Under the pieces are notes generated by a model, which ran no database searches, was not told the origin of the DNA, and saw only the letters and a program-made list of their open reading frames with translations. From a virus (Duplodnaviria > Caudoviricetes), in the IMG/VR virus record IMGVR_UViG_3300042562_000678, positions 607 through 64,606 of that record: 64,000 bases of DNA; one strand, written 5' to 3'. The position numbers were made by a program, and so were the translations under genes. Below, piece by piece: positions 7,907 to 64,000 of the stretch (the stretch's first letter is position 1; each line of letters begins with the position of its first letter).

Positions 7907-7919
7907 CCGGGAGAAGCAA

Positions 7920-8030
7920 ATGACATTTGAGAAATGGTGGGAGACCCTCACAGTCGCAGAGCAAAAGCTCATAGGCTACAACGTAGCCCGATTCGTTTGG
8001 GAACAAGCCCTGGCGCTAGGAAAAAAATAA
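7920..8030 (+). CDS. small hypothetical protein (MTFEKWW...)
   Basis: 36 codons read manually, preceded by GGAGAAGCAAATG. Confidence 0.5.
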   Translation: MTFEKWWETLTVAEQKLIGYNVARFVWEQALALGKK

Positions 8031-8043
8031 ACTCGAGAAGCAA

Positions 8044-9603
8044 ATGCAAATCATAGAAGACAAAGCACTACTGTTCACTACCCGCAACCCCCAGAAGTAC
8101 AGCATCATCCCCAAGTCCAAAGTCATGCCCCGCGCTGATGGTGGCTTTGATGTTGCCGTCTACTGGGGGCTGGATGAAGCGCGTGTGTTGAAGAACCTTG
8201 GCGTCAAAGATGTACCCTCGCCCATCATGCGGCGCTACGCTTGGCCCGGTAGGTACAAGCCCATGGCGCACCAGAAAGAAACCGCCGCATTTCTGACCAT
8301 GCACCGCAAGGCGTTTGTGTTTTCCGAACCAGGCACAGGCAAGACGCTCTCCGCATTGTGGGCAGCAGACTACTTGATGCAGCGCGGAGACATTCGCCGG
8401 GTATTGGTGCTGTGCCCACTGTCGATCATGCAGTCCGCATGGCTGGCAGACTTGAACAGCAGCGTCATCCATCGCTCTGCCATCATCGCGCACCACGCGC
8501 AGGCTAGCCGCCGCATCGAGATGATTCAGCAAGACTACGAATTTGTAATTGCCAACTACGATGGGCTGAACCTGGTTGCGTCTGAGATCGTCAATGACGG
8601 GCGCTTTGATCTGGTGATCGTTGACGAAGCCAACGCATACAAGACCGTGACCACCAAGCGCTGGAAAGCGCTCAAGTCCATACTCAGGGCCGACACCCAT
8701 GTGTGGATGATGACAGGCACACCAGCGTCTCAGTCCCCTGCTGACGCGTATGGGCTGGCCAAGATCGTCAACCCCGATGGAATCCCCCGCCTGTACACAG
8801 GCTGGCGCGACATGGTAATGAACAAGATCACCATGTACAAGTGGGCGCCAAAAGCCAACGCCCCCGATCTGGTGCACGAAGCCCTGCAACCCGCCATCCG
8901 CTACACCAAAGCGCAGTGCCTGGACTTGCCGCCTGTACTAACCACCACACGGCAAGTACCGCTGACCCCACAACAAGCCAAGTACTACAACCTCCTCAAA
9001 GACCGCATGCTTGTGCAAGCCGCAGGCGAGACGATCACCGCAGTCAATGCGGCGGCAGCACTGAGCAAGCTGCTTCAAATCAGTTGCGGTGCGGCATACA
9101 CAGACGAGAAGGAAGTCATTGAGTTTGATTCAGCGCCGCGTCTGGGTGTGTTGGAGGAGATACTCGAAGAGACCGACCGCAAGGTGCTTATCTTTGCGCT
9201 GTTTCGCAGCACCATCGACACCATCCAAACACACTTGCTCAAGCGCCACATAACCGCTGAGTGCATCCACGGCTCAGTCACACCACCCAAACGCGCTGAC
9301 ATCATCCGCCGCTTTCAAAACGAGCCTGACCCCCGCGTGTTGGTTATGCAGCCGCAGGCTACGGCACATGGGATTACCCTGACCGCTGCCGACACTGTTG
9401 TGTTCTACGGCCCGTTGATGAGCGTTGAGCAATACATCCAGTGCATAGCCCGTGCGGACCGCAAGGGGCAGAACTCAGACAAGGTGACAGTCATCCACAT
9501 CGAGGGTAGTCCCATCGAGAAAAAGATGTTCAAAGCCTTGGAGGGCAAAGTAAGCGACAACTTACTTTTGACCCAGATGTTTGATGCAGAAATAAATTCT
9601 TGA
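8044..9603 (+). CDS. SNF2-family (SF2) helicase
   Basis: EPGTGKT, IVDEA, MTGTP, GITLT, QCIARADRKGQ. Confidence 0.92.
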   Translation: MQIIEDKALLFTTRNPQKYSIIPKSKVMPRADGGFDVAVYWGLDEARVLKNLGVKDVPSPIMRRYAWPGRYKPMAHQKETAAFLTMHRKAFVFSEPGTGKTLSALWAADYLMQRGDIRRVLVLCPLSIMQSAWLADLNSSVIHRSAIIAHHAQASRRIEMIQQDYEFVIANYDGLNLVASEIVNDGRFDLVIVDEANAYKTVTTKRWKALKSILRADTHVWMMTGTPASQSPADAYGLAKIVNPDGIPRLYTGWRDMVMNKITMYKWAPKANAPDLVHEALQPAIRYTKAQCLDLPPVLTTTRQVPLTPQQAKYYNLLKDRMLVQAAGETITAVNAAAALSKLLQISCGAAYTDEKEVIEFDSAPRLGVLEEILEETDRKVLIFALFRSTIDTIQTHLLKRHITAECIHGSVTPPKRADIIRRFQNEPDPRVLVMQPQATAHGITLTAADTVVFYGPLMSVEQYIQCIARADRKGQNSDKVTVIHIEGSPIEKKMFKALEGKVSDNLLLTQMFDAEINS

Positions 9604-14604: not shown

Positions 14605-14827
14605 GAAGGGGCAGGGGTTTTTTGTCCCCTGCCTTGATCTAGACGCTACCCGCGAAGAGGGCTTGCGCAAAGCCCTTCACTACCGCCTGTTTGATGCCCG
14701 TGCCGAACCCTGTGTTCGGGACGGGTTTACTGGCGTGTGGTTCTTTCGGATTGTTTATAAAACCGCTCCGCAATCTTGTTCTCAAAGCGCTTCAAGCGAT
14801 CCAGGCGCTCGTCCTTCTGAGCCGTAG
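14564..14827 (+). CDS. small conserved protein (YPW..L..G.GFFVPC)
   Basis: ATG14564; YPWARLEKGQGFFVPC...GVWFFR; 3' end overlaps the giant gene in antisense. Confidence 0.6.
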   Translation: MKKLRINYPWARLEKGQGFFVPCLDLDATREEGLRKALHYRLFDARAEPCVRDGFTGVWFFRIVYKTAPQSCSQSASSDPGARPSEP

Positions 14828-17800
14828 TCAACCGGGGGTTGTCGCGGATGGCGCGTTCTTCGGAGAACAGCTCCCCCATCTCCTGCCTAAACGCCCCTGC
14901 CTCGTCTTTCATGGCTATCAGATTGCTCTGGCGCTGGGCAAACGCCCGCGCCTCGGCTCTCTGACCTTTGTTCAGCAAGCCTTCGTAAGTGTTTGAGGCC
15001 TGCACAATATCATCCATGCGTTCGTAAGCGCGGTCAATCAAGAACCGGCCTTCGGCTGAGTGGAACAAGCCGCCAACAAACGGCTGCTTGCTTGCGGGGG
15101 TAGATGCCTTCTCGCCCCCCGCTCCCGTTGCAAACACAGGGTCAAGCATGTGCAACGCGGAAATCCCCAGCATGCTGGTGTAGCTCTTTACAAAGTGCTC
15201 CAGCATCAGCGGCGACACACCCACAACCCCAGTAAACGACCCCAAAGCCTTGGCCACCTCGGTAGTGCCTGGACGATAGCGCTCCGCTGGCGCAAGCATC
15301 TTCTCGCGTTGGCTCTCTATTGGCCCAAACGCGGTCTGTCCGTAGAAAGCCTCCAACCAAGGCTTTGCGCCCACAGGCACGACTCCAGGCGCGGACTGCC
15401 ACAACAGTTTGCCGATACCCTTGATCGCTTCCGATGCCTTTGTGTCGCGGATGGCTACGTCCACTATGGCTTGGGGAATGGCCATGAACAACACGCCGAT
15501 CTCATAGGGGATGGGGATTCGCAGCGGGTCTTTTACGCCAGGGATGTACACGAAGAAGTTGCCGTAGCGCTGTTCGGGCGTAGCCAACTTGTAGGCCTCG
15601 TCGTCTTGCATCATGATGGCGTAGGCCATAGCGCCAGCCATCAGCATCATCCCACGGGCCTTCAACTTGCGCTGAATCTCCATTTGCTGGGCAAACGGCA
15701 TCTTGCCGCGCAGGGTGCGGTACAGCACGTCCAGGCCTTGAATCTGGGCGTTGAAGAACGGAACCATCGTAGACAGCATCTGCATGCTGGGCGACAACCC
15801 CCTGCGCCCAAAGTTCTGCGACTCCATTGCCACAAACTGCGCCTGGGCCTTAGACAACCCCCGCTTCAAGGCTGACTCATACACCAGCGCCCTGGTGGCA
15901 ACGTCCGCCTGCAAAGCCGCGCTGTCAATCATCCCCATCATTTTTGTCCACTTGCCTTTGCCAGACTGGATGTCCTGCAAGAACTTCTCCATGTCTTTCT
16001 CGTTGCCCGTGTAGACGTTGCTGCTGACAACCAGACCGCGCATGAGTTCGTCCTGGGTCGTGTTCTGCCCATTGCGCATCTTGGCCAACTGCCGAATTGC
16101 GTTGAGCACAGGCACGCCGTCAGTACCCGACAGCAAAGCCGCGTTGATAGGGTCTCGAATAATCTGCCGCACGGCGTATGCGGGTGAGCGGGTAATGAAC
16201 TTGCGCAAGATGTCAGCAGGCACGCCCAGCATTTGCACGAGTTGCGGCAGCGTAGTCTTGATGCCCTCCATGCCCTTGACAATTAAGTGCGCTGGAATAC
16301 CAAACGTATCCGAGTCAATCGTTGCAAAGTATGGCTTGCCCTTGACTTTGAAGTGCACAGTGTCGGCGTTGGCGGGGCCTTGACCGGGGCCGTACTTGGA
16401 CGCAAACCCCGCCTTGTACATGGCGTTGGATGTTTCGTATGCTGCCTTATTGTCCAGGGCAGCGCGGGTCAGCATATACGTGTTCTGCACAGCACTGGTA
16501 AGGATCGGCATGATCTTGGTGTTGTCCCCAATCATGCGTTGCAAATCTGGGTTGTCCTTGATGTTGCCAATCCTGATGGGGCGCTCGTCTTCTACGAACA
16601 GTTTGACCACGCCATCTTCAACGCGGTAGTACGGAGCGTAGGGCACGCGCTTCAACCGGGTAGCTTCTTCGGGGGTCAGGAAGTCGCATTGCGCCGCAAA
16701 GTCCAAAAGACCTGCGTTGTACTGGCGGTACTCCGCTGCTGCCGCATCCATATACTGTTTGACTTTGGGGTTGGCGTTCAGATACGCCTTGTCCGCATCG
16801 TACTCAGCCTTGGCAGCTTTAGCGTCGCCAGTGTTCAAACGAATCCAGCCATTGGGTATAGCTTCGGCTCTTGCACCTGCGCTCAGCACTGTGAACATGC
16901 GCTCAATGTCGTCCGCACTGCGCCCGCTGGCTTTGGTGGCTTGCTCCAGGTGTTCGCTCACACGAAGCAGGTTGGCCCCCTCAACAGACTCATAGCGGTA
17001 CTCTGTCCCGGTGGTGCGCTTGTCGGCCACGATACGAACCGGGCCGCTAGTAACAAACTGCCCCGCCGCCTGGGTCACTTTGTCTGCCATGCGCATGAAG
17101 TACTGCGCCTGGAACGCTTCAACAGAAGTCAGTTTGTCTGCGCCTTCTGCGGCCACAATGGCCGCGTCCGCTGCGGCAAGCCTGTCAACAAGCTGTACCC
17201 GACCAGCCAGCCCGTAGAAATTGCCTTTGATTTTGGCCGTGGTTGTTGGCTCATAGCCAACAATGGTGGAGGTGGGCCGTGCAGCCGCAGCGCTTCTGCC
17301 AACGCCTTGGATTGAACGCGACGGCATGTAGATGGTTTCAATCAACTCTTGCGCCCGCGTCGTCATCAACTCTTGCGTATCAAAGCCAATCAAATTCAAG
17401 AAACGCCGTATTGCACGCACCAGCATGTTGCCACGGAACCAAGGCTTTTGCTCCATCTTTGTGCGCAGGTCGTCGTTGGACTGCGCTTCCGACACAAACT
17501 CTTTCAGGTCTGCGGTTGCATACTCGCCTTCAAACTTTTTATCGCCTTTGATGGCCTTGAGCATGGCCTCCAGTTCGCGCTTGGCTTGGCGCTGCAAGGG
17601 CGTCAGGTCTTTCTCCGGCATTTCGATCACGCGCATGGTGGCGGCGTGGGTAACTTCGTGCACAAGGTCTTCTTGTGTCATGCCTGCCTGGGTCAACAGC
17701 ACCGTGTTAGTAGCCGGGTCATACGCCGCAGGGTATTGCTTGCCGTCAATGGTGATGCTGCTGACAACCTGAACTTTGGTCTGTCGAACAAACTGCGCCA

Positions 17801-20800
17801 CTTTGGCTGCGTTCTCACGCAACAGCGGCGTTGCGCCGTTCTTGGCCACATCGTTTAGCGCGTAGATCAAACTGCCATCGTTGATTTCTTCAATGGCGCG
17901 GTCAGACAACTGCGTACCCAACGCAGTCTTGTACTGGGTAGGAGCCACATCGCCTTCGTCAAAGTAGAAATCGCCTACAGCTTTTTGGGAACGCGTAACT
18001 GGCGCGTTTTTATCAACGTCCTCTTCAACGGCGCTGTCGGCCTCTTGCTCCGCCGTTGCGCCTGTGCGGCGTTTTTGTTTGCTGGCTTGCTCCGCTTCCC
18101 GCATGCGGGAGATGCGTTTTTCCAGCATCTCTATGGTGTTGCTTGCCTGATCTAAAGCATCTTGCGCCACCATCACAGCGGGGCTATCCTTAACCCCGCT
18201 TTTCTCCGCAGCGGTTTCTGCTGCGTTAAGTTCGGTGCGGGCTTTATTCAAATCGGCAGTTGCTTGGCGCAAGTTTTCGCGTTGTGCAATCAGCGCCATG
18301 GACTCGTCGCTGCCAATCAAACGCTTGCCTTCTGCAAGCCGTTCCGCAATCTGCTCTTTGGTGAGCCCCTCAGTTTGCAGCGCGTACTGCGCTTGTAACT
18401 CGGCTTTGCGGTCGCCTTCTGCGGCTCTCACTTGCTTGTTCAGCGTAGCCAAACTGATTGCATTGGCCGCTTCAGGAGACAGGTCATAGCTGCGCAGTCG
18501 AACAGCTCCAGCCTGCCTTGGCGGATTCTGGCTTCCCTGCTTAACATCCAGCCCAGAACCTGTGAGCATCTGTCCTGGGGGCCTTTGGGCTTGGCGAACA
18601 AGCGGCCCCACTTTGCGTGCGCCAAGCCGCGTGCCTGCAACGACAGGTTGCGTGCCGGGCGTTCCAACCGCCGCCGCTTCTCCCACCGCAGTTGTAACGC
18701 GCTCCCCAGCAGGAAGTGCCTGGGCCAGTTCTTTCTCGTAGCGTTGAACATCGGCAGTTGCTTTTTGTACTGCGGCAACGTCATTTTTGGCAACGGCTTT
18801 TTCCAACGCCGCTTGCGACAAACCAAGCATGCGCTTGGCGTTGTTTTGCACGGCCTGTGCCAACTGCCCGGTGGTGTCCACTTCGATACGCGTGCCGGGC
18901 AGCGCGGCCAATTCGGCTGACGGGGCTTTTAAGAGTTGCTCTAAACGATCTTGACGTTCGTCGTCGGCTTTTTGTTCGGCAGTCCGATTGTCTGGCGCCG
19001 GGGTAGCGCGTTCTTTGGCCCTTGCTTTTTCCAAGTTGGCTTGGGATTTGGCCAGCCGCTCTTGCAGTTGTGCCAACACAGCGGCATTTGATTCGTTGCG
19101 TTTTGCAACCGCTGCCAACGCAGGGTCTTTTGCTTGGCGCTCAGTTTCCGCCTGTAACGCAGCCACGGCATCTGCGTACTGCTGTCGCACCCCTTTGCCC
19201 ATCTCGTACTGAAACATGAGCAAATCACGACGCGCCACTTTGTACAGCGCCACTGCTTTGGTGTGCGCAGCATCCACAGGCGTAGCTTTTTCGATAAGCT
19301 CAGCAAGTTTTGCCTCAACAACCACTGGGGCTTTTCTTGCGGTTTCGCCGTCAACCGTTGTTTCGTTTTTGGCAACCGTTTCAAACTCAGCTTTGATTTT
19401 GTCAAGGGACTTGCGCAACTCTGTAAGCTGGGAATCAACACGGTTTACCGCCAACTCATAGTCTTTGGCGGTTCTAGCCAGGGCAGCAGGTGTGTCTGCG
19501 CCCTTTGTCTGAATGAGTTTGGCCGTTGCTTCTGCTGCCTCTGCGCCCGAAAGCTGCTGCTCGGTTAATTTACCGCCGCGATAAACGTACTCGCCCAGTT
19601 CGGCTTGCAGTCGTTCCATCTCCAGCATAACGTCAACGGTCTTTTCGGGAGCAAATGTGCCGTTGGCCGCAGGGTCTAACGCTTTGACGGCGCTACTGAG
19701 CATGTCCAGTTTCTTTTGGGACTCAACAATAACGTTTGGAATAGAAGGCGTGCGTTTTATAGAGTCCGCCAATTGTTGCGCCAGTCGATTGCGCTCTCTT
19801 ACAGCGGGATTGTCTTTGTCCGTATCCCCCGCAGCCGCTTTTTGTGCACGGGCAAGCTGCTGCCGCAACTCATCAATGTCGTCAGCAACGGTAACATTTG
19901 TGGGTTTGGCTAACCGATCAGCCGCTTTGACCAAGTTTGCTGCACGGGCCATTTCTGCCGCAGCTTTGGCAACTTCCGAAGGCTTGGCTTCTTTTGTTTT
20001 GGGGACAGACTCGATTCCCCAACTTGCTTTTTTCGTGGGCTTTGTGCGTAACTTACCCGCAGCAGTGCGATACCCTGCGCCTGCCATCAAACGACCCGCT
20101 TCGCGCTGTCCAGGGGTTGCGCCAGTAATAACGTCTTGTTGTTGCTCGTATGCTCGTTGGCGCTTTTCCAACACATCCAGCTTTTCTTTAGCGCGGGTCT
20201 GTTCTTCCTGTGCTTTTTCCAGACGCACTTGCAGTTCTTTGGGGATGTTGCCCGTGGTCTTTTTAGCTGCCTGGGCCATGTTGGCCATGTTGAGCAGCTT
20301 TTTAACCTGTGCTGGAATTGCTTCGTAATAAGCCCGTTGACGATCGTTTGTGTAGGGTGCAGCCGCTTGTTTAAACCCTGCTGTAGCGCCGCCAAAAACC
20401 TGCGTTTTGTTTTCGTAAGTGGTTTGTAGCTTTGTGGCCAAGTCACGCAGCGCTTTACCACCGTCGCTGTCAGTGGCAGACAGCGCTTTGCGCAAACTCT
20501 CAATCAGGTTCTGCGTATCCACGTACTTGGTACGGGCTGCGTCCAACTCATCTTTTGGAACTTCTTGCTTGACTTTAACGTACTGCGCCAAGCCAAACTG
20601 CGGCAGTGTTCTCTGGTCAGGAACATCCGTGCCCGTGGTGTTCAGCGCATCATCGCGCTTTGCTCGGTTAGACCAGTAAAGATTCTGCAACTGGTCGTCG
20701 GTCATTAAAGACCCTTGCTTGCGCAAACGGTCAATGAACTGCTCCAATGTGGGCACGGACTCCTCGGTAGCATCCGCCACTCGCTCGGCCTCGCGTGCTT

Positions 20801-23800
20801 GCGCAAACGCGGCGTAGCGCTCATTCACACGCCCCTCGGTGCGGCCAAGTTGTTCAGCCAGGTCGTCTATCTGCTTGTCCAGTTCTTTAAGCCGCCCGGT
20901 TGGCAACTTAGAAAATTTATCCAGCAGTTCTTGCAACTGCGGGGTGCTGGCCGTTTGGTTTCTGCGGTTTTGTTCTGCAACCAACGCATCGCGCTCGTCC
21001 ATCAACCGTTGCAAACGCTTTTCTTGTGGGCCTAATTCTTTTCGCGCTTCTTCCAACGGGCCAAACAAATCCCCAGTAGTGGGTTCTTGTTCTTTGGCTT
21101 TGTACGCGGGTTGTTCCAACGACACCAAGCGGTCGTAGGCTTTGCGCAAATTGTCGTTTTCTTTTTGAAGAAAGCTGCGTTGCTCTTTGAGCGCATTCAG
21201 TGCGTTGAGTTTTTCGCCTTTGGGTTTGCCCGCCCGTTTGATTTGGTCGTTAAGTGACGCGAGCAACCGTTCGTTATCCCGCAGTTCTTGAGCGAGTCTT
21301 TGTGCCGACTCAATGGGAAGCTCTTTAGCTTTCTGCGCTTTTTGAAGTGTGGATTTGGGCGCCGCAATGCTTCTACGTTCGCCGTCAACAGTTTCAAAAC
21401 TTACTGTTCTGGTTTTGCCTTCTTCGGTCTTCAGTGCACCCGGCAATAAACGATCCAACAAGTCGGCAACGCGCTCGTCAGTTAAATCTTCCAGAGATTG
21501 TTCGGGAGCAGCACGGCGGCGCTTCTCACCAATGGCTATGCGCTTTTCTACATCTGCCAACGATTCCCTGGCCGTCTCCAACTCTTTGGCTACGTCAGAC
21601 TTAACGCGCATCCCCGGCGCGGCTTCGGGTGTGCTCTCTTCAATGAGCTTTGCAATCTCTGGCTCAGTCAGTCCTGCCGTCAGAATGTCGTACAGCTTCT
21701 TAATCTTGGCTTTCTTCTGCCCTTTGGCCGCGTCCAGTTGCTCTTGAATTTTGAGCAACGACTGGCCGTACACATTTTGTGGAAATTCTTTTTTGGGTAC
21801 CGCGCCAGCAGGCGTGGGGGGTGTTATTCCCAGTGCCCGGTTCTTGATAGCTCCAAGGTTGCTTAAAAACGCTTTGTCGTCGGCAACAATTGACAGATCA
21901 ACAGGCGCTTGTTCAAGCTCCGCTTCAAGTTCTCTGACACGTTTGCTGAGTTCGCGGTACTGCTTGTCCCTGTCATCCTGGTAGCGCAAGTTGTCAGGTT
22001 CTTTTTCAAGCTTGGCCCAGTCTTGCTCTTTTTTTGCAAAACTATCACGCAGCTTCTTTGCTTCTTCTAAGCGCAACTGTGCCAGTGCTTGCTGCGCAGG
22101 GCTTTGCCCACGCCGTTGTGTCATGCGTTCAAACGCTTGCAGCTCGGCTTCTACTTTTTTGCGGCCAGCAGCAGATTGCTCACGCCCCTGCGCCATGGCT
22201 TCAGCAAGTGCTTTGTCCACGGTAATTTCAGGATACTCAAAGCCAAACAAATCTGCTTGCTCGGGCTTGTATGAAACTTCACCTGCCTCAGTGACACGCT
22301 GCTTTTTAGCACCCTCAGTAAACAACTCAGGGCCAATACGCGATTCAAGGTCTCTTATCTGCGGGGCCAGCTTCAGCACGCGTTCAGCGTCCCCCAACTG
22401 GCGGGCAGCATCGAGGTCTGCTGTCAGCTTTTTAAGTTTGGCTTTGTCTTTATCCAGTCCCGCAGGAGCAGCTTCCACAAACGGCTCATAGGCTTGCAGT
22501 TGTTCCAACGCCGCCTTGTGCTGCATTACCGTGTTGGCATGGCGCTCAACGTCTTGTGTGCTGGTCGCGTTGACCATCTTGTCTTGCGCGTCTTTTAAGA
22601 AACGCTCAAGCCCTGTCTGGGCGCTGGTCAAATCCGCACGGCTGGGGAGCAACGGAGCCAAAGATTCCTGCAATTGATTACGCTGGTTGCCAAGTTCTGC
22701 AACTTGCTGCATGTTGCCTGTTTTTTGTGCAGCAGCAATCTGGGTGTCCAAAGCCTGGATGCGCGGCGCTAAAGCCTGAATCTGGGCCAAAGGCGACCGG
22801 TCTTTGACTTCGGGAGCTTCAAATAACTGGGCCTGGGCACCCTTGGTTTGCATGCCCTCACGGGTTTGCTGTTCAAGCTGGCGCTGCTCTTGCCGCGCTT
22901 GTAAGCGCTCACGTACTCCAGGCTGGCGGTACTCATCCACCAGTGCGCGGGTTTCATCAGAGTTGACCAGTTCTTTGCGTGCGGTACGCGCTTCTTCGTT
23001 GTCGGCCTGGGCAACCAGATCGCCTTTGGCTGGCTTGACTTTGAGCTTGTCGTCCAGCGTTTTCATCTGCGCAATGAATGTGCCGTAGCGCTGCTCAAGG
23101 GTGTCCAGGTACTCGTCAGTTTTGCGGTACTCCGTTTGTTCGGCTTCTTGCTGCGCTTTGACCTGCTCTTGCTGGGCCACGGCAGCGGCTTCTTCTGTGC
23201 GTTGGCGCTCGGCCACGATGTCTTTGGCCGCACCCTTCTCGTACAACCGCCCTGCGGCACCAAACGGGGCCAGTTTGGAGACCTGGAACGCCGTCTGCCC
23301 ATACTCAGTCAGTGCGTCTTGGTCAACCAAAGACAGCCCGGCCTGAGCGCGTTCGATCATTTGCTGCGCAACTTCGGTCGGGATTTCCGCCAATGCACCA
23401 ACTGCGGTGCCCTTGGCCAAACTCTTGACCAAACTTTCTTTGGCCAAGTTTTCCGCGCCTTTTTCTGCGCCTTTGGCCAGCATGCGCTCGACGTTTTTGC
23501 CAAATACTGCACCTGCCAACGACCGTCCCAAGGGGATGAAGGTGGCGGCTACATCCAACGCAGCGGCGGGGACTGCGGACAACGCCGCAGTTAAGCGGTT
23601 GACATCCACAGGTTCGCCACGGGCTTTTTGTTCTTCGGCTTGGCGCTCTAAGAAACCGCCGTACATCTGGGTAAAAGACGGGGCGACGGCACCAGTAATT
23701 GCTCCGGGTAGACCGCCAAATGCGCCGCCCACACGCGCTGCCCCAATGGTTGCTGCCATCTGGGGGGTTTGCTCTGCCAATGCAGCAGGGACTTGGCTGA

Positions 23801-24176
23801 TGTATTCGCCAATCGCGGGGAAGATACCGCGCTCTTCATACGCCTTCTTGACCTGTTCAAACCCAGGCTGCTCGGCGTACTTCTCACCCAGTTTTTCTCT
23901 GCGGCCAAGCCCCGCCTCAACGGCAGCGTTACCGCCAAGCAAAGACTCAAGGCCTGTGCGTACCGAGGAGATGGGGGCTTCGACCCCCATGCCTAAAGCG
24001 CCAGCAATACCACCAATGGGTGTTTGACGGGGGCCAGTCTTTAACCCCAGCTTGGCATCAAACTCTTTGCGAGAGATGTCGGAATAGAATTTTCCATATA
24101 GCGCATCCGCAAGCGCCGCATCAGACAGATCAGAGTACTGTGGATACTGCTCACGAATTTCAGCTAGTGTGGCCAT
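14727..24176 (-). CDS. giant internal virion / polyvalent protein (zincin motif, LPD38-like C-terminus)
   Basis: 3149 aa; N-terminal IREQYPQYSDLSD motif of DNA-transfer proteins; long coiled coil; LVHEVTHAAT; C-terminal PFFNAQIQG...RIPIPYEIG. Confidence 0.85.
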   Translation of the reverse strand: MATLAEIREQYPQYSDLSDAALADALYGKFYSDISRKEFDAKLGLKTGPRQTPIGGIAGALGMGVEAPISSVRTGLESLLGGNAAVEAGLGRREKLGEKYAEQPGFEQVKKAYEERGIFPAIGEYISQVPAALAEQTPQMAATIGAARVGGAFGGLPGAITGAVAPSFTQMYGGFLERQAEEQKARGEPVDVNRLTAALSAVPAAALDVAATFIPLGRSLAGAVFGKNVERMLAKGAEKGAENLAKESLVKSLAKGTAVGALAEIPTEVAQQMIERAQAGLSLVDQDALTEYGQTAFQVSKLAPFGAAGRLYEKGAAKDIVAERQRTEEAAAVAQQEQVKAQQEAEQTEYRKTDEYLDTLEQRYGTFIAQMKTLDDKLKVKPAKGDLVAQADNEEARTARKELVNSDETRALVDEYRQPGVRERLQARQEQRQLEQQTREGMQTKGAQAQLFEAPEVKDRSPLAQIQALAPRIQALDTQIAAAQKTGNMQQVAELGNQRNQLQESLAPLLPSRADLTSAQTGLERFLKDAQDKMVNATSTQDVERHANTVMQHKAALEQLQAYEPFVEAAPAGLDKDKAKLKKLTADLDAARQLGDAERVLKLAPQIRDLESRIGPELFTEGAKKQRVTEAGEVSYKPEQADLFGFEYPEITVDKALAEAMAQGREQSAAGRKKVEAELQAFERMTQRRGQSPAQQALAQLRLEEAKKLRDSFAKKEQDWAKLEKEPDNLRYQDDRDKQYRELSKRVRELEAELEQAPVDLSIVADDKAFLSNLGAIKNRALGITPPTPAGAVPKKEFPQNVYGQSLLKIQEQLDAAKGQKKAKIKKLYDILTAGLTEPEIAKLIEESTPEAAPGMRVKSDVAKELETARESLADVEKRIAIGEKRRRAAPEQSLEDLTDERVADLLDRLLPGALKTEEGKTRTVSFETVDGERRSIAAPKSTLQKAQKAKELPIESAQRLAQELRDNERLLASLNDQIKRAGKPKGEKLNALNALKEQRSFLQKENDNLRKAYDRLVSLEQPAYKAKEQEPTTGDLFGPLEEARKELGPQEKRLQRLMDERDALVAEQNRRNQTASTPQLQELLDKFSKLPTGRLKELDKQIDDLAEQLGRTEGRVNERYAAFAQAREAERVADATEESVPTLEQFIDRLRKQGSLMTDDQLQNLYWSNRAKRDDALNTTGTDVPDQRTLPQFGLAQYVKVKQEVPKDELDAARTKYVDTQNLIESLRKALSATDSDGGKALRDLATKLQTTYENKTQVFGGATAGFKQAAAPYTNDRQRAYYEAIPAQVKKLLNMANMAQAAKKTTGNIPKELQVRLEKAQEEQTRAKEKLDVLEKRQRAYEQQQDVITGATPGQREAGRLMAGAGYRTAAGKLRTKPTKKASWGIESVPKTKEAKPSEVAKAAAEMARAANLVKAADRLAKPTNVTVADDIDELRQQLARAQKAAAGDTDKDNPAVRERNRLAQQLADSIKRTPSIPNVIVESQKKLDMLSSAVKALDPAANGTFAPEKTVDVMLEMERLQAELGEYVYRGGKLTEQQLSGAEAAEATAKLIQTKGADTPAALARTAKDYELAVNRVDSQLTELRKSLDKIKAEFETVAKNETTVDGETARKAPVVVEAKLAELIEKATPVDAAHTKAVALYKVARRDLLMFQYEMGKGVRQQYADAVAALQAETERQAKDPALAAVAKRNESNAAVLAQLQERLAKSQANLEKARAKERATPAPDNRTAEQKADDERQDRLEQLLKAPSAELAALPGTRIEVDTTGQLAQAVQNNAKRMLGLSQAALEKAVAKNDVAAVQKATADVQRYEKELAQALPAGERVTTAVGEAAAVGTPGTQPVVAGTRLGARKVGPLVRQAQRPPGQMLTGSGLDVKQGSQNPPRQAGAVRLRSYDLSPEAANAISLATLNKQVRAAEGDRKAELQAQYALQTEGLTKEQIAERLAEGKRLIGSDESMALIAQRENLRQATADLNKARTELNAAETAAEKSGVKDSPAVMVAQDALDQASNTIEMLEKRISRMREAEQASKQKRRTGATAEQEADSAVEEDVDKNAPVTRSQKAVGDFYFDEGDVAPTQYKTALGTQLSDRAIEEINDGSLIYALNDVAKNGATPLLRENAAKVAQFVRQTKVQVVSSITIDGKQYPAAYDPATNTVLLTQAGMTQEDLVHEVTHAATMRVIEMPEKDLTPLQRQAKRELEAMLKAIKGDKKFEGEYATADLKEFVSEAQSNDDLRTKMEQKPWFRGNMLVRAIRRFLNLIGFDTQELMTTRAQELIETIYMPSRSIQGVGRSAAAARPTSTIVGYEPTTTAKIKGNFYGLAGRVQLVDRLAAADAAIVAAEGADKLTSVEAFQAQYFMRMADKVTQAAGQFVTSGPVRIVADKRTTGTEYRYESVEGANLLRVSEHLEQATKASGRSADDIERMFTVLSAGARAEAIPNGWIRLNTGDAKAAKAEYDADKAYLNANPKVKQYMDAAAAEYRQYNAGLLDFAAQCDFLTPEEATRLKRVPYAPYYRVEDGVVKLFVEDERPIRIGNIKDNPDLQRMIGDNTKIMPILTSAVQNTYMLTRAALDNKAAYETSNAMYKAGFASKYGPGQGPANADTVHFKVKGKPYFATIDSDTFGIPAHLIVKGMEGIKTTLPQLVQMLGVPADILRKFITRSPAYAVRQIIRDPINAALLSGTDGVPVLNAIRQLAKMRNGQNTTQDELMRGLVVSSNVYTGNEKDMEKFLQDIQSGKGKWTKMMGMIDSAALQADVATRALVYESALKRGLSKAQAQFVAMESQNFGRRGLSPSMQMLSTMVPFFNAQIQGLDVLYRTLRGKMPFAQQMEIQRKLKARGMMLMAGAMAYAIMMQDDEAYKLATPEQRYGNFFVYIPGVKDPLRIPIPYEIGVLFMAIPQAIVDVAIRDTKASEAIKGIGKLLWQSAPGVVPVGAKPWLEAFYGQTAFGPIESQREKMLAPAERYRPGTTEVAKALGSFTGVVGVSPLMLEHFVKSYTSMLGISALHMLDPVFATGAGGEKASTPASKQPFVGGLFHSAEGRFLIDRAYERMDDIVQASNTYEGLLNKGQRAEARAFAQRQSNLIAMKDEAGAFRQEMGELFSEERAIRDNPRLTTAQKDERLDRLKRFENKIAERFYKQSERTTRQ

Positions 24177-53724: not shown

Positions 53725-55260
53725 TTAGTAATACGCCGCCTTACGGCGGAAGTAGATGGGGTCGTCTTTCTCGTCGGTGTCCAAACTGATGAACCCGCCT
53801 TGGCGAAACCGCAGCAACGCTTGGGAGGTCGTGTCCACGTAGTCGTCATTCTCGCCGTTGGGGAAGGATGCCACCTCCTCGATGACCTCCCTGGCCCAGC
53901 GTGTGTCTGGTGCCCAGACTGTACCTGAAGTGAACAAATCCGCAACCGCGTTCAGACGCACGATCTTGTCGTTGCCCCTGGAGGGGTTGGTCTCTTGCAC
54001 AGGTATGCCCATCCTGCGCAGCTCTTGTATCAACGGCGCTCCTGCGGCCTTCTTCTCCACGATGAACGCATCTGGCTCCCATTCCTTGTAGTGCTTGAGC
54101 GCAGTGGCCTTCAACTCAGGAAACTGCATCCGGTCTTTGAACGCATCCAGCAGTATGACCTGCGCGGCATCGTGCTCTTCCTCGTTGTAGAACACCCCCC
54201 AGGTTGTGCACGCCGAATAGTCAGCGCTGGTCTTGGCTTCAAACGCAGTGTCCCAGGACTGGATGATGTACTCACAGGAGGGCGGCTCTTCGCCCTCCCA
54301 GATGCGCCAGTTCTTTCTGGAGATGATGGCCGCGTTGTCGCTGGTGGGCTGCTGCATGTACTGCGCGTTCCAATACTGGGGGTCGATCGACGCTTTGGCC
54401 GACTTCAACGCAGCCAGGGGCCACTGCTCTGGCCACAGGGACTTCTCGTCGTCCGTGCCTTCGTTCAGTATGGCGGGCAGCTCCACGATCTCCCAGGGCG
54501 GCGCTTCGGGGTTCTTGGTCTGGTAGTCGATCAGCCGCCCGGTCAGGTCCAATTTGCCCCAGCGGGTCATCACCACAATGATTCCGCCCCCTGGCATCAA
54601 GCGCTGGAGGGGTCCGGTCTGGAACCAACTCCACGCCGTGTCAAACGCTAGACGACTGTTGGCTTTTACGTCTTGTTCCGAGTGAGGGTCATCAATAACG
54701 AACAGATCGGCACCACGGCCAGCCAGAGCACCACCGACACCAGCAGCGTAATACTGACCCCCAGCGCCAGTACCCCATTTTCCAGCAGCTTTTTGGTCAT
54801 CGGCAACAACAGTGTGGGGGAAAAGCTCACGGTAATCCTCGCTTGCGATCAAGTTGCGGACCTTGCGGCCAAAGTCTTCGGACAAAGACGCGGTGTGCGT
54901 CCCCATGATGATCTTCTTATTAGGGTATTTACCTAGAAAGTACGCTGGGAACAGGTAAGAACTGAATTCTGACTTGCCCATACGGGGGGCAATGTTGATG
55001 ATGACCCGGTTTTTGCGCCCCTCGATCACATCGGTGAAGATTTTGGCCAGTTTCCTGTGGTGTGGACCTACTTTAAACCCCGGATAGACCCGCTGGGCGA
55101 ACGGAATCATGTCTTGGCGTGCTGCGGCCACCCCATAGCGCTTCTCGCGCTCCTCCAGCATGTCAAACAGCTCCATCTTCTCCTTGATAGAAAGAGTCGG
55201 GAGCGCCTTTTGAATGGCGGCAACCTCAGTTGGGGAGAGCGTCAGGTCGTTGAGCTTCAT
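53725..55260 (-). CDS. terL: terminase large subunit
   Basis: APRMGKSE Walker A, IDDPH, MTRW, SWDTA, EKKAAG, DDYVD. Confidence 0.95.
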   Translation of the reverse strand: MKLNDLTLSPTEVAAIQKALPTLSIKEKMELFDMLEEREKRYGVAAARQDMIPFAQRVYPGFKVGPHHRKLAKIFTDVIEGRKNRVIINIAPRMGKSEFSSYLFPAYFLGKYPNKKIIMGTHTASLSEDFGRKVRNLIASEDYRELFPHTVVADDQKAAGKWGTGAGGQYYAAGVGGALAGRGADLFVIDDPHSEQDVKANSRLAFDTAWSWFQTGPLQRLMPGGGIIVVMTRWGKLDLTGRLIDYQTKNPEAPPWEIVELPAILNEGTDDEKSLWPEQWPLAALKSAKASIDPQYWNAQYMQQPTSDNAAIISRKNWRIWEGEEPPSCEYIIQSWDTAFEAKTSADYSACTTWGVFYNEEEHDAAQVILLDAFKDRMQFPELKATALKHYKEWEPDAFIVEKKAAGAPLIQELRRMGIPVQETNPSRGNDKIVRLNAVADLFTSGTVWAPDTRWAREVIEEVASFPNGENDDYVDTTSQALLRFRQGGFISLDTDEKDDPIYFRRKAAYY

Positions 55261-55846
55261 CAGCCGTATGTGTGTGAGTGCTAACTTCTATGTCTTCGAT
55301 CACAGCAGCGTCTGCGACGCCCATGAACCTGTTGAGCTTGTCCTTGATCTTCTGGTCGATCTCGTCGTCGCTCAGAGACTCCTTCTTGACCTCGATCTTG
55401 TCGGTGAACAGGCCCACTTCCGTGATTTTTCCCAAAAGACCGAGCGCCTTCAGGCGGATGTTGGCGTTGGGGTTCTCTGCTTCTTCCAACAGTTTGGCCA
55501 CGGTGTAGCCCCGAATCTCTTTGGCGCGTTCCACAAACTCCCAGTCGTATGCAGACAACATCCCAACCAGATGCTGCACCGCCGCGGGGGTTTTTATCTG
55601 TGCCAAATGTTTGTGGGTGATCTCTGCTGGAGCCGCAGTAATCATGCCGTTGAAAGACGCCCTGGCTGCGTCAATCTCTGCCTGCGCCACAGCCGCATCG
55701 GTATCCACCGCCCCCAAACCTTTGAGCCAGTCTGTGGTTTTTATTTTGGCGTCCACCAAATCTGCCGGGGACAGTTTGTTTACGGCAACAGTCTTCCCTT
55801 GGTGAGTACTCACCTCGGGGGAGAAATCTATTAAATGATCCAGCAT
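55226..55846 (-). CDS. putative terminase small subunit
   Basis: Directly upstream of TerL; RLKALGLLGK...GLFTDKIEV motif; start at MLDHL chosen by inference. Confidence 0.65.
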   Translation of the reverse strand: MLDHLIDFSPEVSTHQGKTVAVNKLSPADLVDAKIKTTDWLKGLGAVDTDAAVAQAEIDAARASFNGMITAAPAEITHKHLAQIKTPAAVQHLVGMLSAYDWEFVERAKEIRGYTVAKLLEEAENPNANIRLKALGLLGKITEVGLFTDKIEVKKESLSDDEIDQKIKDKLNRFMGVADAAVIEDIEVSTHTHTADEAQRPDALPN

Positions 55847-55860
55847 ACGCGCATAAGCCC

Positions 55861-55889
55861 TTGAACCTGCGATGGGGCTAATGTACACT
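55861..55889 (+). promoter_or_regulatory. sigma70 promoter for the candidate sRNA
   Basis: TTGAAC-17 bp-TACACT. Confidence 0.6.
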
Positions 55890-55895
55890 CAATCC

Positions 55896-56024
55896 CGGTA
55901 AGTGTGCAAGCAGTTGCCGGTTGGCCTTCGGCCAGCAAGCAAAAATGCTCATTTGCTTCTCCTCCGGGGGTTTGTGATTATCCCCCTCTTCAACCCCTGA
56001 CTGGCAACGGTCAGGGGCTTTTTT
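55896..56024 (+). ncRNA. candidate trans-acting small RNA with anti-RBS seed
   Basis: Promoter, 5' hairpin (55909-55949), seed CATTTGCTTCTCCTCC (55950-55965), hairpin (55966-55986), terminator. Confidence 0.6.
55994..56024 (+). terminator. intrinsic terminator
   Basis: CCCCTGACTG-GCAA-CGGTCAGGGG-CTTTTTT. Confidence 0.85.
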
Positions 56025-56124
56025 CATTTGGGGGGTGTTGGCTGGTAGTTCCCCTTTTCCACTTGCGTGTGCCTACACGGCTCCTCATTTAAACCAAGCC
56101 TCTCTATTGGTCACCAACATGCGC

Positions 56125-56153
56125 AGTATACCCCCCTGTCAATCGTTGGACAA
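56125..56153 (-). promoter_or_regulatory. putative late (packaging/structural) promoter with operator
   Basis: Minus strand TTGTCC-17-TATACT, overlapped by TGTCCAACGATTGACA. Confidence 0.55.
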
Positions 56154-56395
56154 GGGTTTTGTAGAATTTTTTAAAAAATTTATGGGGGTAGTGGGTAAGT
56201 ATTACAAAAGATTGGTTTATGGCTGGGGAATAGTGTTCTGGCTGGCTAGTATGGCTTGTTTATATATGGGTTGGTGGGGGTAGGGTGGGGTTCAGGGGGT
56301 GGCTCCAGACCATGTTTTAAACCCCGTCATGTGATACTGAAAGTGTCCGAGGGGGAAACCCTGGAGACATTCCTTAACTTAACTGGAGAAGCAAC

Positions 56396-56851
56396 ATGAA
56401 CCAATCGAAAGTAACTATGGCTGTGTTCAGCCAACGCCTTGCCGCCAAGCAGAAGGGTGAGGATCGTCTGTTGGAGGAAGCCACACGCCCCTTCCACAAG
56501 CACTACCAAAAGCTTAACGCCGAGGGGCAGACAGCCTACCGCACCGAGTGGATGCTCAACGCATTCATCGGGGCGTTGAAGGTGTCGGAGAAGAAAGCCG
56601 GAGAGATTCTCTCCCAGAGCAGGGATGACCGCACCAAAGACCAGCAGGCTGTGTACTACCGAGCAAGCAACTCATTCAAGTACCACATCGTTCGGGCGGA
56701 GTCCACCCAGGCGCCAGAGTCTCCCAGCCACGCTCGTGTGGCTGTGCCCAAGGTCAAGGTTGAGCAGGCGGTCAAGTTGTTTGCGGGGATGACCCGTGAG
56801 CAGATCAACGCCTTGGTTGATCGCGCCTTGTCTCAGATCACCTTCGAGTAA
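56396..56851 (+). CDS. first early gene, hypothetical
   Basis: 151 aa, GGAGAAGCAACATG start. Confidence 0.75.
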   Translation: MNQSKVTMAVFSQRLAAKQKGEDRLLEEATRPFHKHYQKLNAEGQTAYRTEWMLNAFIGALKVSEKKAGEILSQSRDDRTKDQQAVYYRASNSFKYHIVRAESTQAPESPSHARVAVPKVKVEQAVKLFAGMTREQINALVDRALSQITFE

Positions 56852-57129: not shown

Positions 57130-57223
57130 GAACCTCCGCAAGCACAGCGTGCTGTGCTTGCTGGGCAACCCTGCGCCTTGCAGAACCCTGGGAGAGATTC
57201 TCTCCCGCAACTGGAGAAGCAAC

Positions 57224-57439
57224 ATGAAAAAGCACACCAACCTGACCATCAACGGAGTGGTCATCAAGTCCTACATCCCCTGCCTTGAGCGGGGCGGCAA
57301 ACGCTGGCGCGAAGTCCAGATGTGGGAGACCTGCGTAGGGCGTGAAGCACGCCTTCACACAAGCGCAGAAGTCTGCGCCAACTACCTCGAATCCATCGGA
57401 GTACCCATTCCGCACCAACTTAGTGCACAAACTGCCTAG
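57224..57439 (+). CDS. hypothetical protein
   Basis: GGAGAAGCAACATG start. Confidence 0.6.
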   Translation: MKKHTNLTINGVVIKSYIPCLERGGKRWREVQMWETCVGREARLHTSAEVCANYLESIGVPIPHQLSAQTA

Positions 57440-58463: not shown

Positions 58464-58572
58464 CCTTGACGGGTGTCAGGGGAAACATTCACGGGAGAGA
58501 TTCTCTCCCACGCTGTACTCGGCATTGGGCTACGCCGCGCACAGCTTTCACCATAGCCTGGAGGAAAAGCAA

Positions 58573-60230
58573 ATGATAGTAAATGTTCGTGGACATTGGT
58601 TGGACTTACCCACCATCGAGTATTCGGTGCTTGTTTCGCTTGGCTCATGGGATGGGCAAGAGACAGAAGAAGACCGAAACATCTTCTACTACACCGACGG
58701 CGAGCCGCTGAGTCTGGGCGATGTAATCGCTGGCGACTTTCGTGTGACTGAAATTTATTGAAAGGGGAAACGAAATGAAAGCGAAAGTTATCTGTATTGA
58801 GGGCTATTGGAAAGACGACCACAAGCGGTTTGAGCGCCGCTGTGTGGTCATGCCCAACGCTGCCACGGACTCGATGGCAACAGACATATTGGAAGGTGTC
58901 AAGGGCAGCTTGGGGTTCCACAACGACATCTTCTATGTGTTCGGAGAAGACGAGCGCATCGTGGGCGAACACCGCGAGTTCGTGGTCGAGTTCTGCAACC
59001 CCATCTATGAGGTTGATGTGGGAGAACTGCAATGAAAACGAAAGAAGAAATGGTCGCCTTCGCCGAGGGCTACCTGCGATGCGCTCTGTATGACGAACAC
59101 ACAGGCGAGTCCATCAAGGGTGTTGATGAGTGGGTGTCTTGGGATGAGTACGACTTCAACTTCGTTGGGTCTGACCACGCCGAGGATGTCCCCGAGTATG
59201 CCCTCATGGTGCTGGTGTACCCAGAGTGGAAAGAGGTGCTGCCCGCACCAGTAGACACATTCATTGTTCAACAGTAAGGAGAAAGCAAATGAAAGTAAGA
59301 AAGCTAAAGCAGCATCACCTAGCGTTGATGAAACACCATGAATTCAGGCGTAAGTGTGCGAGATACAGAGCGGCAGCAAGACTGCGCAGAGCACAACAGC
59401 TTGCGACTGAATTGGTTGAATTGCCAGTAGAGGGTTTGTTTGTGCACGAGCCGTGTAACTTTTGAAGGAGAAGTGAAATGAATCGATACACAGTACAGGT
59501 GCGCTTGTCGTACTACGCCGATGTGGAAGTCGAGGCAGATGACGAACACAGCGCCAAACAGCAGGCAATACGCCAAGCGCACAGAGCGATGGAGAAGGGG
59601 CAAGGGTGCTGGGGCGAAGAACCCAGCGTGACACACATAACCAGTGAAGGAGAAAGCAAATGAAATCTTGTAGAAACTGCGCCCACTCTCGACAAAGTGG
59701 GGCTCATCGTGTCGAACTTGTCTGTCCAGTAAATGGCAGGCGGGTAGCACCAACACCATCCATGAATACGGAAGAAAACATCAAAGCAGACCGGGATTGC
59801 CGAGACATTGCCGCACGCTGCCACGCATATGAACCCGAAGGAGAAAGCAAATGAAGAACCCGATACCAAAGACAGGCTTTGTAGCCACGCCCGATTCACT
59901 CGATGAATTAATGGCGTACTGCGAGCGATTCAGCGGGTCAGAGAAAGCCATCGCCATGTTGGTGGCTACGATGACGCTGAACCTAGCACACAAGCTGGTT
60001 AACGAAGCAACACAAGGAGAGACAACATGAAAGGACTAGACGCACACCACTACGCGGTCATGGACGCGTACCAAGACCTGATCGACAGAGAAGACGCGCA
60101 GTCAGCCCTGGCTGACGCTGAACGCGCACGCTTGCTCGACTTAGTTATCCAGGTGCAGGGCGCACTGGTGCTGAACCAGCAAGACATTGCTATGTGTATT
60201 TTGAATGAAATTGAAAATCACTTGCAGTAA
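58573..60230 (+). CDS. array of eight small early genes (58573-58761, 58775-59035, 59032-59277, 59289-59465, 59478-59663, 59660-59854, 59851-60030, 60027-60230)
   Basis: Each has a GGAG-type SD, mostly the shared GGAGAA(A)GCAAATG motif, and several are ATGA-coupled. Confidence 0.65.
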
Positions 60231-63498: not shown

Positions 63499-63783
63499 AT
63501 GACTGACAAGACCTACAACGGCTGGACGAACTACGCCACATGGCGTGTGAACCTGGAGATACTCGATGACGCGGACAAAGCCGAACTGTTCGACCTATCC
63601 TTGCCTGTTGAACAACTGCGCCATGTGCTGCAAGATTATGTGGAGGGGCACATCTATGAAGCAGGCGGGGGCGAAGGCAATATTGCTGTGGACTACGCGT
63701 TGGCATTTCTGTCGGATGTGAACTGGTACGAGATCGCCAAGCACATGATTGACGATGCACAACTGGAGAAGTCTGATGAATAA
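63499..63783 (+). CDS. conserved phage protein (YNGWTNYATW family)
   Basis: YNGWTNYATWRVNL...VNWYEIA. Confidence 0.75.
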   Translation: MTDKTYNGWTNYATWRVNLEILDDADKAELFDLSLPVEQLRHVLQDYVEGHIYEAGGGEGNIAVDYALAFLSDVNWYEIAKHMIDDAQLEKSDE

Positions 63784-63883
63784 CTACACCATGTCCGAGC
63801 GCATTCAGCGCGTTGTTGTTCTGGTCGCACTGATTGTGCTGGCCTTGGATTTATTTATATGGAGGGCGTAGCAACCACTAACT

Positions 63884-63922
63884 TGTCCAACACTTGACAG
63901 AAGTTTATTTGCGAGGTACATT
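63884..63922 (+). promoter_or_regulatory. sigma70 promoter with overlapping operator
   Basis: TTGACA(63894)-17-TACATT(63917); TGTCCAACACTTGACA covers the -35. Confidence 0.7.
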
Positions 63923-64000
63923 TTCAAAAACGGAGAAGCACAAATGCACTACCACACACCGCCCTACGACACGGGCAAAGTAAAGATCGGTCTGCTGTAC

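Follow-up and report, generated by a model that had tools for sequence, protein, structure and literature searches.

A predicted small RNA gene beside the terS-like gene of an uncultured lake phage and its pairing potential with early-gene start regions

The window considered here is a stretch of 64,000 nucleotides (bases 607-64606 of the 64,606-bp virus record IMGVR_UViG_3300042562_000678) from an uncultured lake phage, and the element in question is a predicted small RNA (sRNA) gene on its plus strand at 55861-56024. The gene sits in the divergent gap that separates two blocks of genes. The early genes are encoded on the plus strand from 56396 across the record ends to 14604 and include those for a DNA polymerase, a primase/helicase, an SNF2-type helicase and an amidoligase. 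The late genes are encoded on the minus strand from ~55846 down to 14727 and include the terS-like gene, terL, the portal and structural genes and an open reading frame (ORF) of 3149 amino acids. From the sequence it is predicted that the sRNA probably turns the translation of early genes down. The start region of the SNF2-like helicase would be its conserved primary target and is the one target backed by co-variation.

Anatomy and conservation of the predicted sRNA gene

An initial annotation, made from the letters of the window, had described a plus-strand unit with a promoter, a 5' hairpin, a second hairpin and a terminator capped by a GNRA loop. This unit is present (Table 1), and it recurs in every relative that was counted. 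The fold of 55896-56024 has a minimum free energy (MFE) of -58.2 kcal/mol (z = -5.1) and none of 200 shuffled sequences was as stable. The whole seed had been described as apparently unpaired. This holds in the predicted fold for the CUCCUCC at 55959-55965, which is the only open part of the seed, whereas CAUUUGCUU at 55950-55958 is paired inside the 5' domain (stem-loop 1, SL1).

Table 1. Window coordinates of the predicted sRNA gene, the adjacent terS-like gene and early start regions complementary to the seed (SD, Shine-Dalgarno; SL, stem-loop)
Feature	Positions	Strand	Remarks
Predicted sRNA promoter	55861-55889	+	sigma-70-like; -35 TTGAAC (55861-55866), 17-nt spacer, -10 TACACT (55884-55889)
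Predicted sRNA, ~129 nt	55896-56024	+	5' end inferred from the -10 box, 3' end from the U-tract
5' domain (SL1)	55896-55958	+	GGCC-UUCG-GGCC hairpin at 55920-55936; 3' arm CAUUUGCUU is the 5' part of the seed
Seed CAUUUGCUUCUCCUCC	55950-55965	+	most conserved alignment columns
SL2 hairpin (GGGGG...CCCCC)	55966-55986	+	predicted fold
Intrinsic terminator	55994-56024	+	10-bp stem (55994-56017; 7 G-C pairs), GCAA loop, U-tract 56019-56024, tail CTTTTTTCAT
terS-like gene	55226-55846	-	probable start is the conserved ATG at 55846 (MLDHLIDF)
SNF2-like helicase start region	8035-8046	+	gene 8044-9603; GAGAAGCAAATG, 12/12 complementary to seed; phrog_62 DNA helicase, E = 7e-107
Start region, 36-codon ORF	7910-7922	+	13/13 complementary to seed; best cofold gain, -20.6 kcal/mol
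Start region, first early gene (56396-56851)	56385-56398	+	GGAGAAGCAACATG; -16.8 kcal/mol
Start region, 71-codon early ORF	57213-57226	+	GGAGAAGCAACATG; -18.2 kcal/mol
Three start regions, small ORFs at 59289, 59660, 59851	59278-59853	+	GGAGAAAGCAAATG; one-base bulge each; -13.8, -16.0, -18.2 kcal/mol
Start region, 62-codon ORF	58560-58575	+	GGAGGAAAAGCAAATG; 15/16 positions of seed complement; -16.9 kcal/mol

IMG/VR contains 458 relatives of the terS-like protein, of which the best 80 loci were kept for comparison. Many of the relatives can be aligned only from residue 12-14 onward, and the -35 box of the sRNA promoter lies 15-20 bp upstream of the terS-like start. Eight of the 80 loci, which have little upstream DNA, were set aside before counting, and the 72 with at least ~250 nt upstream of terS were counted. 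The plus-strand unit was found upstream of the terS-like gene in all 72 and in the window, giving 54 unique sequences. The units are composed of a -35 box starting with TTG, a spacer of 17-18 nt, a TAYACT or TATAAT -10 box, an RNA of 79-141 nt and a T-run. The TTG is present in 54 of the 54 unique units, the -10 box is TACACT in 35, TATACT in 18 and TATAAT in one, and 52 units have a 17-nt spacer, the other two one of 18 nt. Additionally, a covariance model (R1) built from 19 short forms matched the same place, antisense to terS, in 74 of the 80 loci, three of these matches being among the eight loci set aside; L026 has an additional weak match of 23.8 bits. Among the six loci with no R1 match, L079 is diverged and was found by pattern, and the other five contigs stop less than ~130 nt upstream of terS. 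The R1 match at 55937-56024 (40.5 bits, E = 5.9e-8) is the sole strong one in the window.

The MFE folds of 53 of the 54 units show the same order of parts, namely SL1, an unpaired CU-rich linker that contains CUCC, SL2 and the terminator. SL2 occurs in 24 different sequences and the terminator hairpin in 30 across the 54 units, with the T-run invariably on the plus (sRNA) strand. When the 19-sequence alignment was scored, 89.1% of the cells were paired compared with 81.2% in shuffles and 40-54% with slid partners, and changes on both sides were found in 14 pairs versus 7.3 in shuffles, with none of 500 shuffles reaching 14. Five of the six helix pairs of SL2 have changes on both sides. In the outer stem of SL1 the pairing is kept through changes of the 5' arm only (GU to AU and UG to CG) and the 3' arm is invariant. 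The TTGCTTCTCCT columns are at least 90% invariant in the 54-sequence alignment, and UUGCUUCUCCU is nearly invariant while the stems co-vary. The general marks of a trans-acting sRNA are found in the sequence: its own promoter and terminator, a conserved accessible seed, and no conserved ORF. These results predict that 55861-56024 is a well-delimited member of a new family of phage sRNA genes.

A GGCC-YNYG-GGCC hairpin with a UUCG, UGCG, UACG or UUUG loop occurs at varying places in SL1 in the window (55920-55936) and in L018, L026, L029 (two copies), L038 and L051-L060. It looks like a modular, possibly mobile, stabilising element.

Downstream of the sRNA terminator, the window has a 96-nt insertion (56041-56136) that lies between the terminator and a conserved palindrome. 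The insertion is shared with L024 and is absent from L001 (99% terS identity) and from other clades, and one contig from a public RNA run, used as a structural variant only, joins 56040 directly to 56137. The gap has a single sigma-70-like leftward promoter, and the insertion supplies its TATACT -10 box. Blocks conserved across clades follow at 56137-56300 and consist of the palindrome TGTCAATCGTTGGACA (56137-56152), an AT-rich TTTTTTAAAAAATTT stretch, AATAGTGTTC, and a G-rich block with four G-runs, GGGTTGGTGGGGGTAGGGTGGGG (~56268-56292). These blocks may serve as signals for an operator, for an origin or for packaging, or may form a G-quadruplex.

Complementarity to early start regions and co-variation

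Matches to the complement of the seed are concentrated at the starts of early genes. GGAGAAGCAAATG with at most two mismatches has eight matches in the window versus 1.85 expected, and none of 100 shuffles reached eight. Of the seven GAGAAGCAA matches, where 0.67 would be expected, five fall at early starts on the plus strand (6644, 7911, 8035, 56386 and 57214), one is the sRNA locus and the remaining one lies within a late gene on the minus strand (50296). GGAGAAAGCAA has three matches versus 0.03 expected, all at the early starts 59289, 59660 and 59851. The motif was found at no late-gene start in the window. The complementarity reported in the initial annotation at 7910 (13/13) and 8035 (12/12) was confirmed, and among the changed or bulged copies it had placed at further early starts, those at 56385, 57213, 58560 and in the 59278 region have predicted pairing with the seed. 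A genome-wide RNAduplex scan (20-mer, -15 kcal/mol) was dropped as too permissive, with hundreds of looped matches on both strands, and was replaced by the exact-match counts and by sets of start regions.

In the set of hand-curated starts, the 16-nt seed forms a duplex of -14 kcal/mol or better with 16 of 42 early start regions and with none of 35 late ones, and the median duplex energies are -11.8 and -7.9, respectively (p = 1.5e-5). On this point the initial annotation is supported. A control with a 16S-like anti-SD sequence separates the early and late regions weakly (-6.4 versus -5.8). When the whole RNA was cofolded with the start regions and the opening of SL1 was charged, the median gain was -9.2 for early versus -5.2 for late regions (Mann-Whitney p = 5e-5) and 15 of the best 16 start regions were early. 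With automated calls, three genomes representing three seed classes gave 9/41, 10/47 and 13/50 same-strand starts compared with 0/44, 0/45 and 1/40 opposite-strand starts, which is the direction seen with the curated set in a weaker form. With the curated starts, UUUG, the 4-mer that flanks the core in the window's own seed, is tied for first among the 256 possible flanks.

The strongest evidence for a particular target comes from the SNF2-like helicase gene, which is located ~16.6 kb from the sRNA gene. The window and 12 further records hold both the helicase and the sRNA, and these 13 genomes fall into five seed classes; the seed classes of L058, L073 and L079 are outside this comparison. 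The helicase was not matched in nine by count, or ten by name (G002, G004, G008, G009, G010, G012, G014, G015, G017 and G018), of the 20 records searched, or in 3/5 and 5/5 records of two further searched sets. In the initial loci, the early DNA compared extends over 4 kb or less and does not include it. Each of the 13 genomes has a helicase start region complementary to its own seed, through 10-12 contiguous Watson-Crick pairs in 12 of them and through 12 pairs including one G-U in the other. The six genomes with the window-type seed have the helicase start GAGAAGCAAATG or, in one case, the variant GAGAAGCGAATG, which retains a G-U pair, and the match is 12 nt. The three genomes of the GAUGC class have GGAGAAGCATCT (12, 12 and 10 nt), the two of the GUUGC class have GGAGAAGCAAC (11 nt), the one with an extra U in its seed has GGAGAAAGCA (10 nt), and L072, whose seed is strongly diverged, has GAGAGAGAAACA (12 nt).

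Matches within a class are 10-12 nt long whereas those to the seeds of foreign classes are 5-10 nt, and none of the other 120 permutations does as well as the true assignment of classes, which is the single best. The two sites, which are unlinked and lie in opposite orientations, change together, and selection for RNA-RNA pairing is the simplest explanation. The co-variation of seed and targets that the initial annotation proposed to look for is therefore seen for the helicase, across five seed classes, and is weak for the other early genes. The start codon of the helicase is TTG rather than ATG in the GAUGC and GUUGC classes (L083, L086, L087, L138 and L139), and the spacing from the SD to the start stays short.

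Two further observations concern early genes. An acidic, Cys-rich early protein of 450-483 amino acids is encoded in L051, L052, L059-L061, L064, L072, L079, L050 and L026 and has no relative in the genome of the window. The best match to the seed in the L051 clade is at its gene (483 amino acids) and runs over 14 contiguous nt, and the 5' flanks of the start regions of its orthologues (CCGAGG, CTGAGG and AAGG) track the 3' flank of the local seed. In the window, the ORF at 57224 has a 17-bp palindrome, GGGAGAGAnTCTCTCCC (57190-57206), just upstream of its ribosome-binding site (RBS); in RNA form, the SD-like and anti-SD-like arms of the palindrome would pair with each other.

Interpretation and alternative explanations

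The explanation that we favour, and that we regard as fairly probable, is that the RNA is a trans-acting sRNA directed against ribosome sites that represses the mRNA of the helicase along with other early mRNAs. It combines a gene, a seed, a target bias and a co-variation that were computed with transcription, repression and timing that we infer. Host RNA polymerase would transcribe rightward from the sigma-70-type promoter of the sRNA and the intrinsic terminator would end an RNA of ~129 nt. The open CU-rich linker would start the duplex, which would extend into the 3' arm of SL1 (CAUUUGCUU) and span the stretch from the SD to the start codon of the helicase mRNA. GGAGAA(A)GCAA is shared by about a dozen further early mRNAs, which would pair likewise. 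This pairing would hide the RBS so that translation is repressed, and the mRNA would perhaps be exposed to decay. Repression is proposed because the RNA is analogous to CU-rich sRNAs that act against RBSs. The outcome would be an RNA counterpart of protein-based early shut-off.

Several points weigh against this explanation. The promoter matches the consensus at 8 of 12 positions, and it was unlisted by the consensus scan because the scan needs 9 of 12; the terminator was listed by the same scan. Pairing within SL1 occupies the 5' half of the seed, which would have to be opened. The SD sequences of early genes are somewhat stronger anyway (p = 0.012 in the anti-SD control). The specificity of the flank hinges on the gene calls, as UUUG is 20th of 256 with 15 ties in the window when automated calls are used; in the other two genomes the own flank ranks 7th and 11th of 256 with such calls. 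The 13 genomes of the helicase comparison represent only five independent seed classes, two of which have one genome each, and co-variation is weak beyond the helicase. In the relatives, where the comparisons cover the first 4 kb or less of early DNA, a candidate start with at least 9 contiguous matching nt was found in just 29 of 46 distinct early regions, only 17 of the 46 beat core-kept shuffles at P <= 0.05, and the mean rank of the own seed on early DNA is 5.8 of 16, with L072 and L028 last. A search of the early regions compared gave no orthologues of the 62-codon ORF at 58573 that could be used. Eight public RNA runs were located, each with at most 0.10 of the sampled words and all kept as contigs, and four of them were compared. 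The contigs are unstranded, come from relatives (88-95% likeness) and carry no strand, end or level information, and the transcript was not observed.

If the sRNA is real, it may be chiefly aimed at host mRNAs, as a generic anti-SD agent of host shut-off or as a mimic of a CU-rich host sRNA, and the early matches would then be incidental. The open part of the seed is just CUCCU(C/U), which is near the generic anti-SD core, the sub-threshold Rfam matches discussed below are to host sRNAs that act on many RBSs, and most early genes co-vary weakly with the seed. However, the start of the helicase tracks the seed through five variants that include positions outside the SD core, and the late genes of the phage are spared (0/35), so that we consider a host-directed role unlikely.

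The shared motif could also be the site of a protein, either a translational repressor like RegA or a DNA-binding regulator, with the minus-strand copy at 55950-55962 being one more site and the sites shifting with the specificity of the protein. The motif does occur in the same sense at many start regions and once upstream of terS, and the co-variation of sites alone would look the same with a shared protein as with RNA pairing. However, the copy near terS is embedded in a unit with a conserved plus-strand promoter and terminator, it has no start codon in 25 of the 54 units, it is 60-100 nt from the terS start and there is no conserved leftward promoter to transcribe it. Additionally, the A-to-G change in one helicase variant keeps a G-U pair, which fits RNA pairing. 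A protein site is for these reasons quite improbable.

Cis-antisense control of the late (terS) operon is a very improbable explanation, whether the RNA would pair with a leftward leader or its promoter, which overlaps the region just upstream of terS, would disturb late transcription. The initial annotation had called the RNA cis-antisense to a late leader of terS, and a leftward promoter in the window, TTGTCC-17-TATACT at 56153-56125, would make such a leader. The closeness of the sRNA -35 box to the terS start also speaks for it, as does the -10 region, which is nearly palindromic (AATGTACACT), so that a leftward -10 box could overlap it; a leftward late promoter at that position is speculation. 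The claim is not supported, because the promoter in question is the sole sigma-70-like leftward promoter upstream and relies for its -10 box on the 96-nt insertion, which is found in the window and L024 and is not generally shared, being absent from L001 and the other clades. Among the clades without the GCAAGCAGTTGC hairpin, a leftward -35 box is not conserved, and the co-variation of the helicase would be left unexplained.

Almost no weight can be given to the alternative raised in the initial annotation itself, that the element is only the RBS of a 24-codon minus-strand ORF (55952-55878) encoding a terS leader peptide: the minus strand of the window does show GGAGGAGAAGCAAATG followed by 24 codons, but the start codon after the motif is missing in 25 of the 54 unique units, in several 92-97% relatives a TAG cuts the ORF, which is left with eight codons in the close relatives L007, L014, L024, L030, L047 and L054, and other clades have unrelated peptides and ORF lengths of 6 to more than 24 codons.

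The proposed repression of early mRNAs by a trans-acting sRNA can also be considered in the setting of the lineage. No close cultured relative was found, as the terS-like protein was unmatched by tblastn in 50,697 phage records; terL reaches an identity of at most 53% and DNA matches cover at most 3% of the query. A PHROG search with the terS-like protein gave no match, and the 3149-amino-acid ORF of the structural block (14727-24176, minus strand) is likewise without a PHROG family match at E <= 0.001. Two contigs of metagenome-assembled genomes (MAGs) hold relatives of terS. One is a 1.7-kb contig (L082) binned with a Limnohabitans MAG, which has a terS relative 76% identical and the sRNA (R1 match). 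The binning is a weak hint at a Burkholderiales host, so short a contig being weak evidence. The other is a 2.8-kb contig (L081) from a Lysinibacter MAG with a terS identity of 51%, in which TATACT, the GCAAGCAGTTGC hairpin and the terminator are kept and the CU-rich stretch, GUCCCUUCG, differs from that of the window.

The ends of the virus record overlap by ~170-260 nt and its completeness is rated 100%. The repeated ends (63735-64000 of the window and the 606 bases preceding it) contain a strong TTGACA-17-TACATT promoter and a GGAGAAGCACAAATG start, and one of the two end-repeat copies of record G000 has an extra 96 nt. Repeated ends with a length variant indicate that the genome is circularly permuted or terminally redundant. 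The initial annotation had offered an RNA-based immunity system of the P1 c4 or P4 CI kind as one possible role. This is unlikely because no match to an integrase or resolvase was found in the genome rated complete.

A broader proposal, which is tentative and which we hold with less than even confidence, is that a lineage of apparently lytic freshwater phages, represented by the 458 terS relatives in IMG/VR, times early expression by one dedicated sRNA. The sRNA would accumulate and close the RBSs of the helicase mRNA and of the early mRNAs marked by the shared motif. Its promoter, interlocked with the start of the packaging operon, would couple early shut-off to the onset of late expression.

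Comparison with known systems

To our knowledge, few phage-encoded trans-acting sRNAs are known. An Rfam search gave no match at gathering thresholds. Sub-threshold matches were found at the place of the sRNA in the window and in seven of nine relatives (L033 and L079 had none), all on the sRNA strand, and the families are ar15/AbcR, Betaproteobacteria toxic sRNA, anti-hemB, mmgR, PsrR1 and NsiR1. RF02278 (Betaproteobacteria_toxic_sRNA) scored 16.3 bits in the window, 26.8 in L059 and 25.2 in L072, far below its gathering cut-off of 50, and RF02837 (anti-hemB) scored 15.9 to 23.9 bits compared with a cut-off of 49.5.

The toxic or double-hairpin RNAs and the Bordetella pertussis RNA S17S are described as having unpaired CU-rich stretches that pair with many RBSs (PMC5688073; bioRxiv 10.1101/2024.11.19.624354). 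The RNAs grouped here with RF02278 include ncS03/05/27/62 of Burkholderia cenocepacia and S17S of B. pertussis. Such RNAs have many predicted or shown start-region targets and end in an intrinsic terminator (PMC5688073; bioRxiv 10.1101/2024.11.19.624354). The phage sRNA resembles the RF02278 and RF02837 RNAs, which are among its best sub-threshold matches, in being CU-rich, in having start-region targets and in its intrinsic terminator. Those RNAs, unlike it, are encoded in bacterial chromosomes and are aimed at transporter and metabolic genes. By analogy, the phage sRNA may work like the toxic or double-hairpin RNAs without being a member of the family, as homology is not supported by the scores.

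The alpha-r15/AbcR family (RF02345; 19.6 bits, E = 0.04-0.07, below the gathering cut-off of 40) has the same order of parts in the cmscan alignment, namely a stem-loop, an open UUCCCCUCU-like stretch, a second stem-loop and a terminator. AbcR sRNAs repress many mRNAs at the SD. They are alphaproteobacterial chromosomal genes, unlike the phage sRNA, and the likeness may stem from a shared design alone.

The c4 RNA of P1 and P7 is, in passages of a review, a phage small RNA that blocks translation by pairing around the RBS of a phage mRNA (PMC12197685). Among phage RNAs it is the nearest in action to the predicted sRNA. The c4 RNA serves immunity in temperate phages and acts on the ant operon, whereas the predicted sRNA has its own promoter and a seed matching many unlinked genes. 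The phage sRNAs covered in the review passages are mostly from temperate phages and have host targets (PMC12197685). No Rfam match to the C4 family was found at the sRNA up to E = 10 or at the gathering threshold, and full-text literature searches found no lytic-phage sRNA that represses its own early mRNAs through a shared ribosome-site tag.

In T4, RegA is a translational repressor of early mRNAs and RegB is an endoribonuclease that cuts GGAG in early SD sequences. The likeness of action is that a phage factor shuts off the phage's own early mRNAs at their start regions. RegA and RegB are proteins and have no sequence relation to the predicted sRNA, the specificity of which would rest on RNA-RNA pairing. 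If the proposed role is true, the sRNA would be an RNA-only counterpart of RegA and RegB. Its gene, its seed and one target are pinned solely by comparison of sequences, in phages not yet amenable to culture. The sRNA and the start region of the helicase, with five natural compensatory variants, form a directly testable pair.

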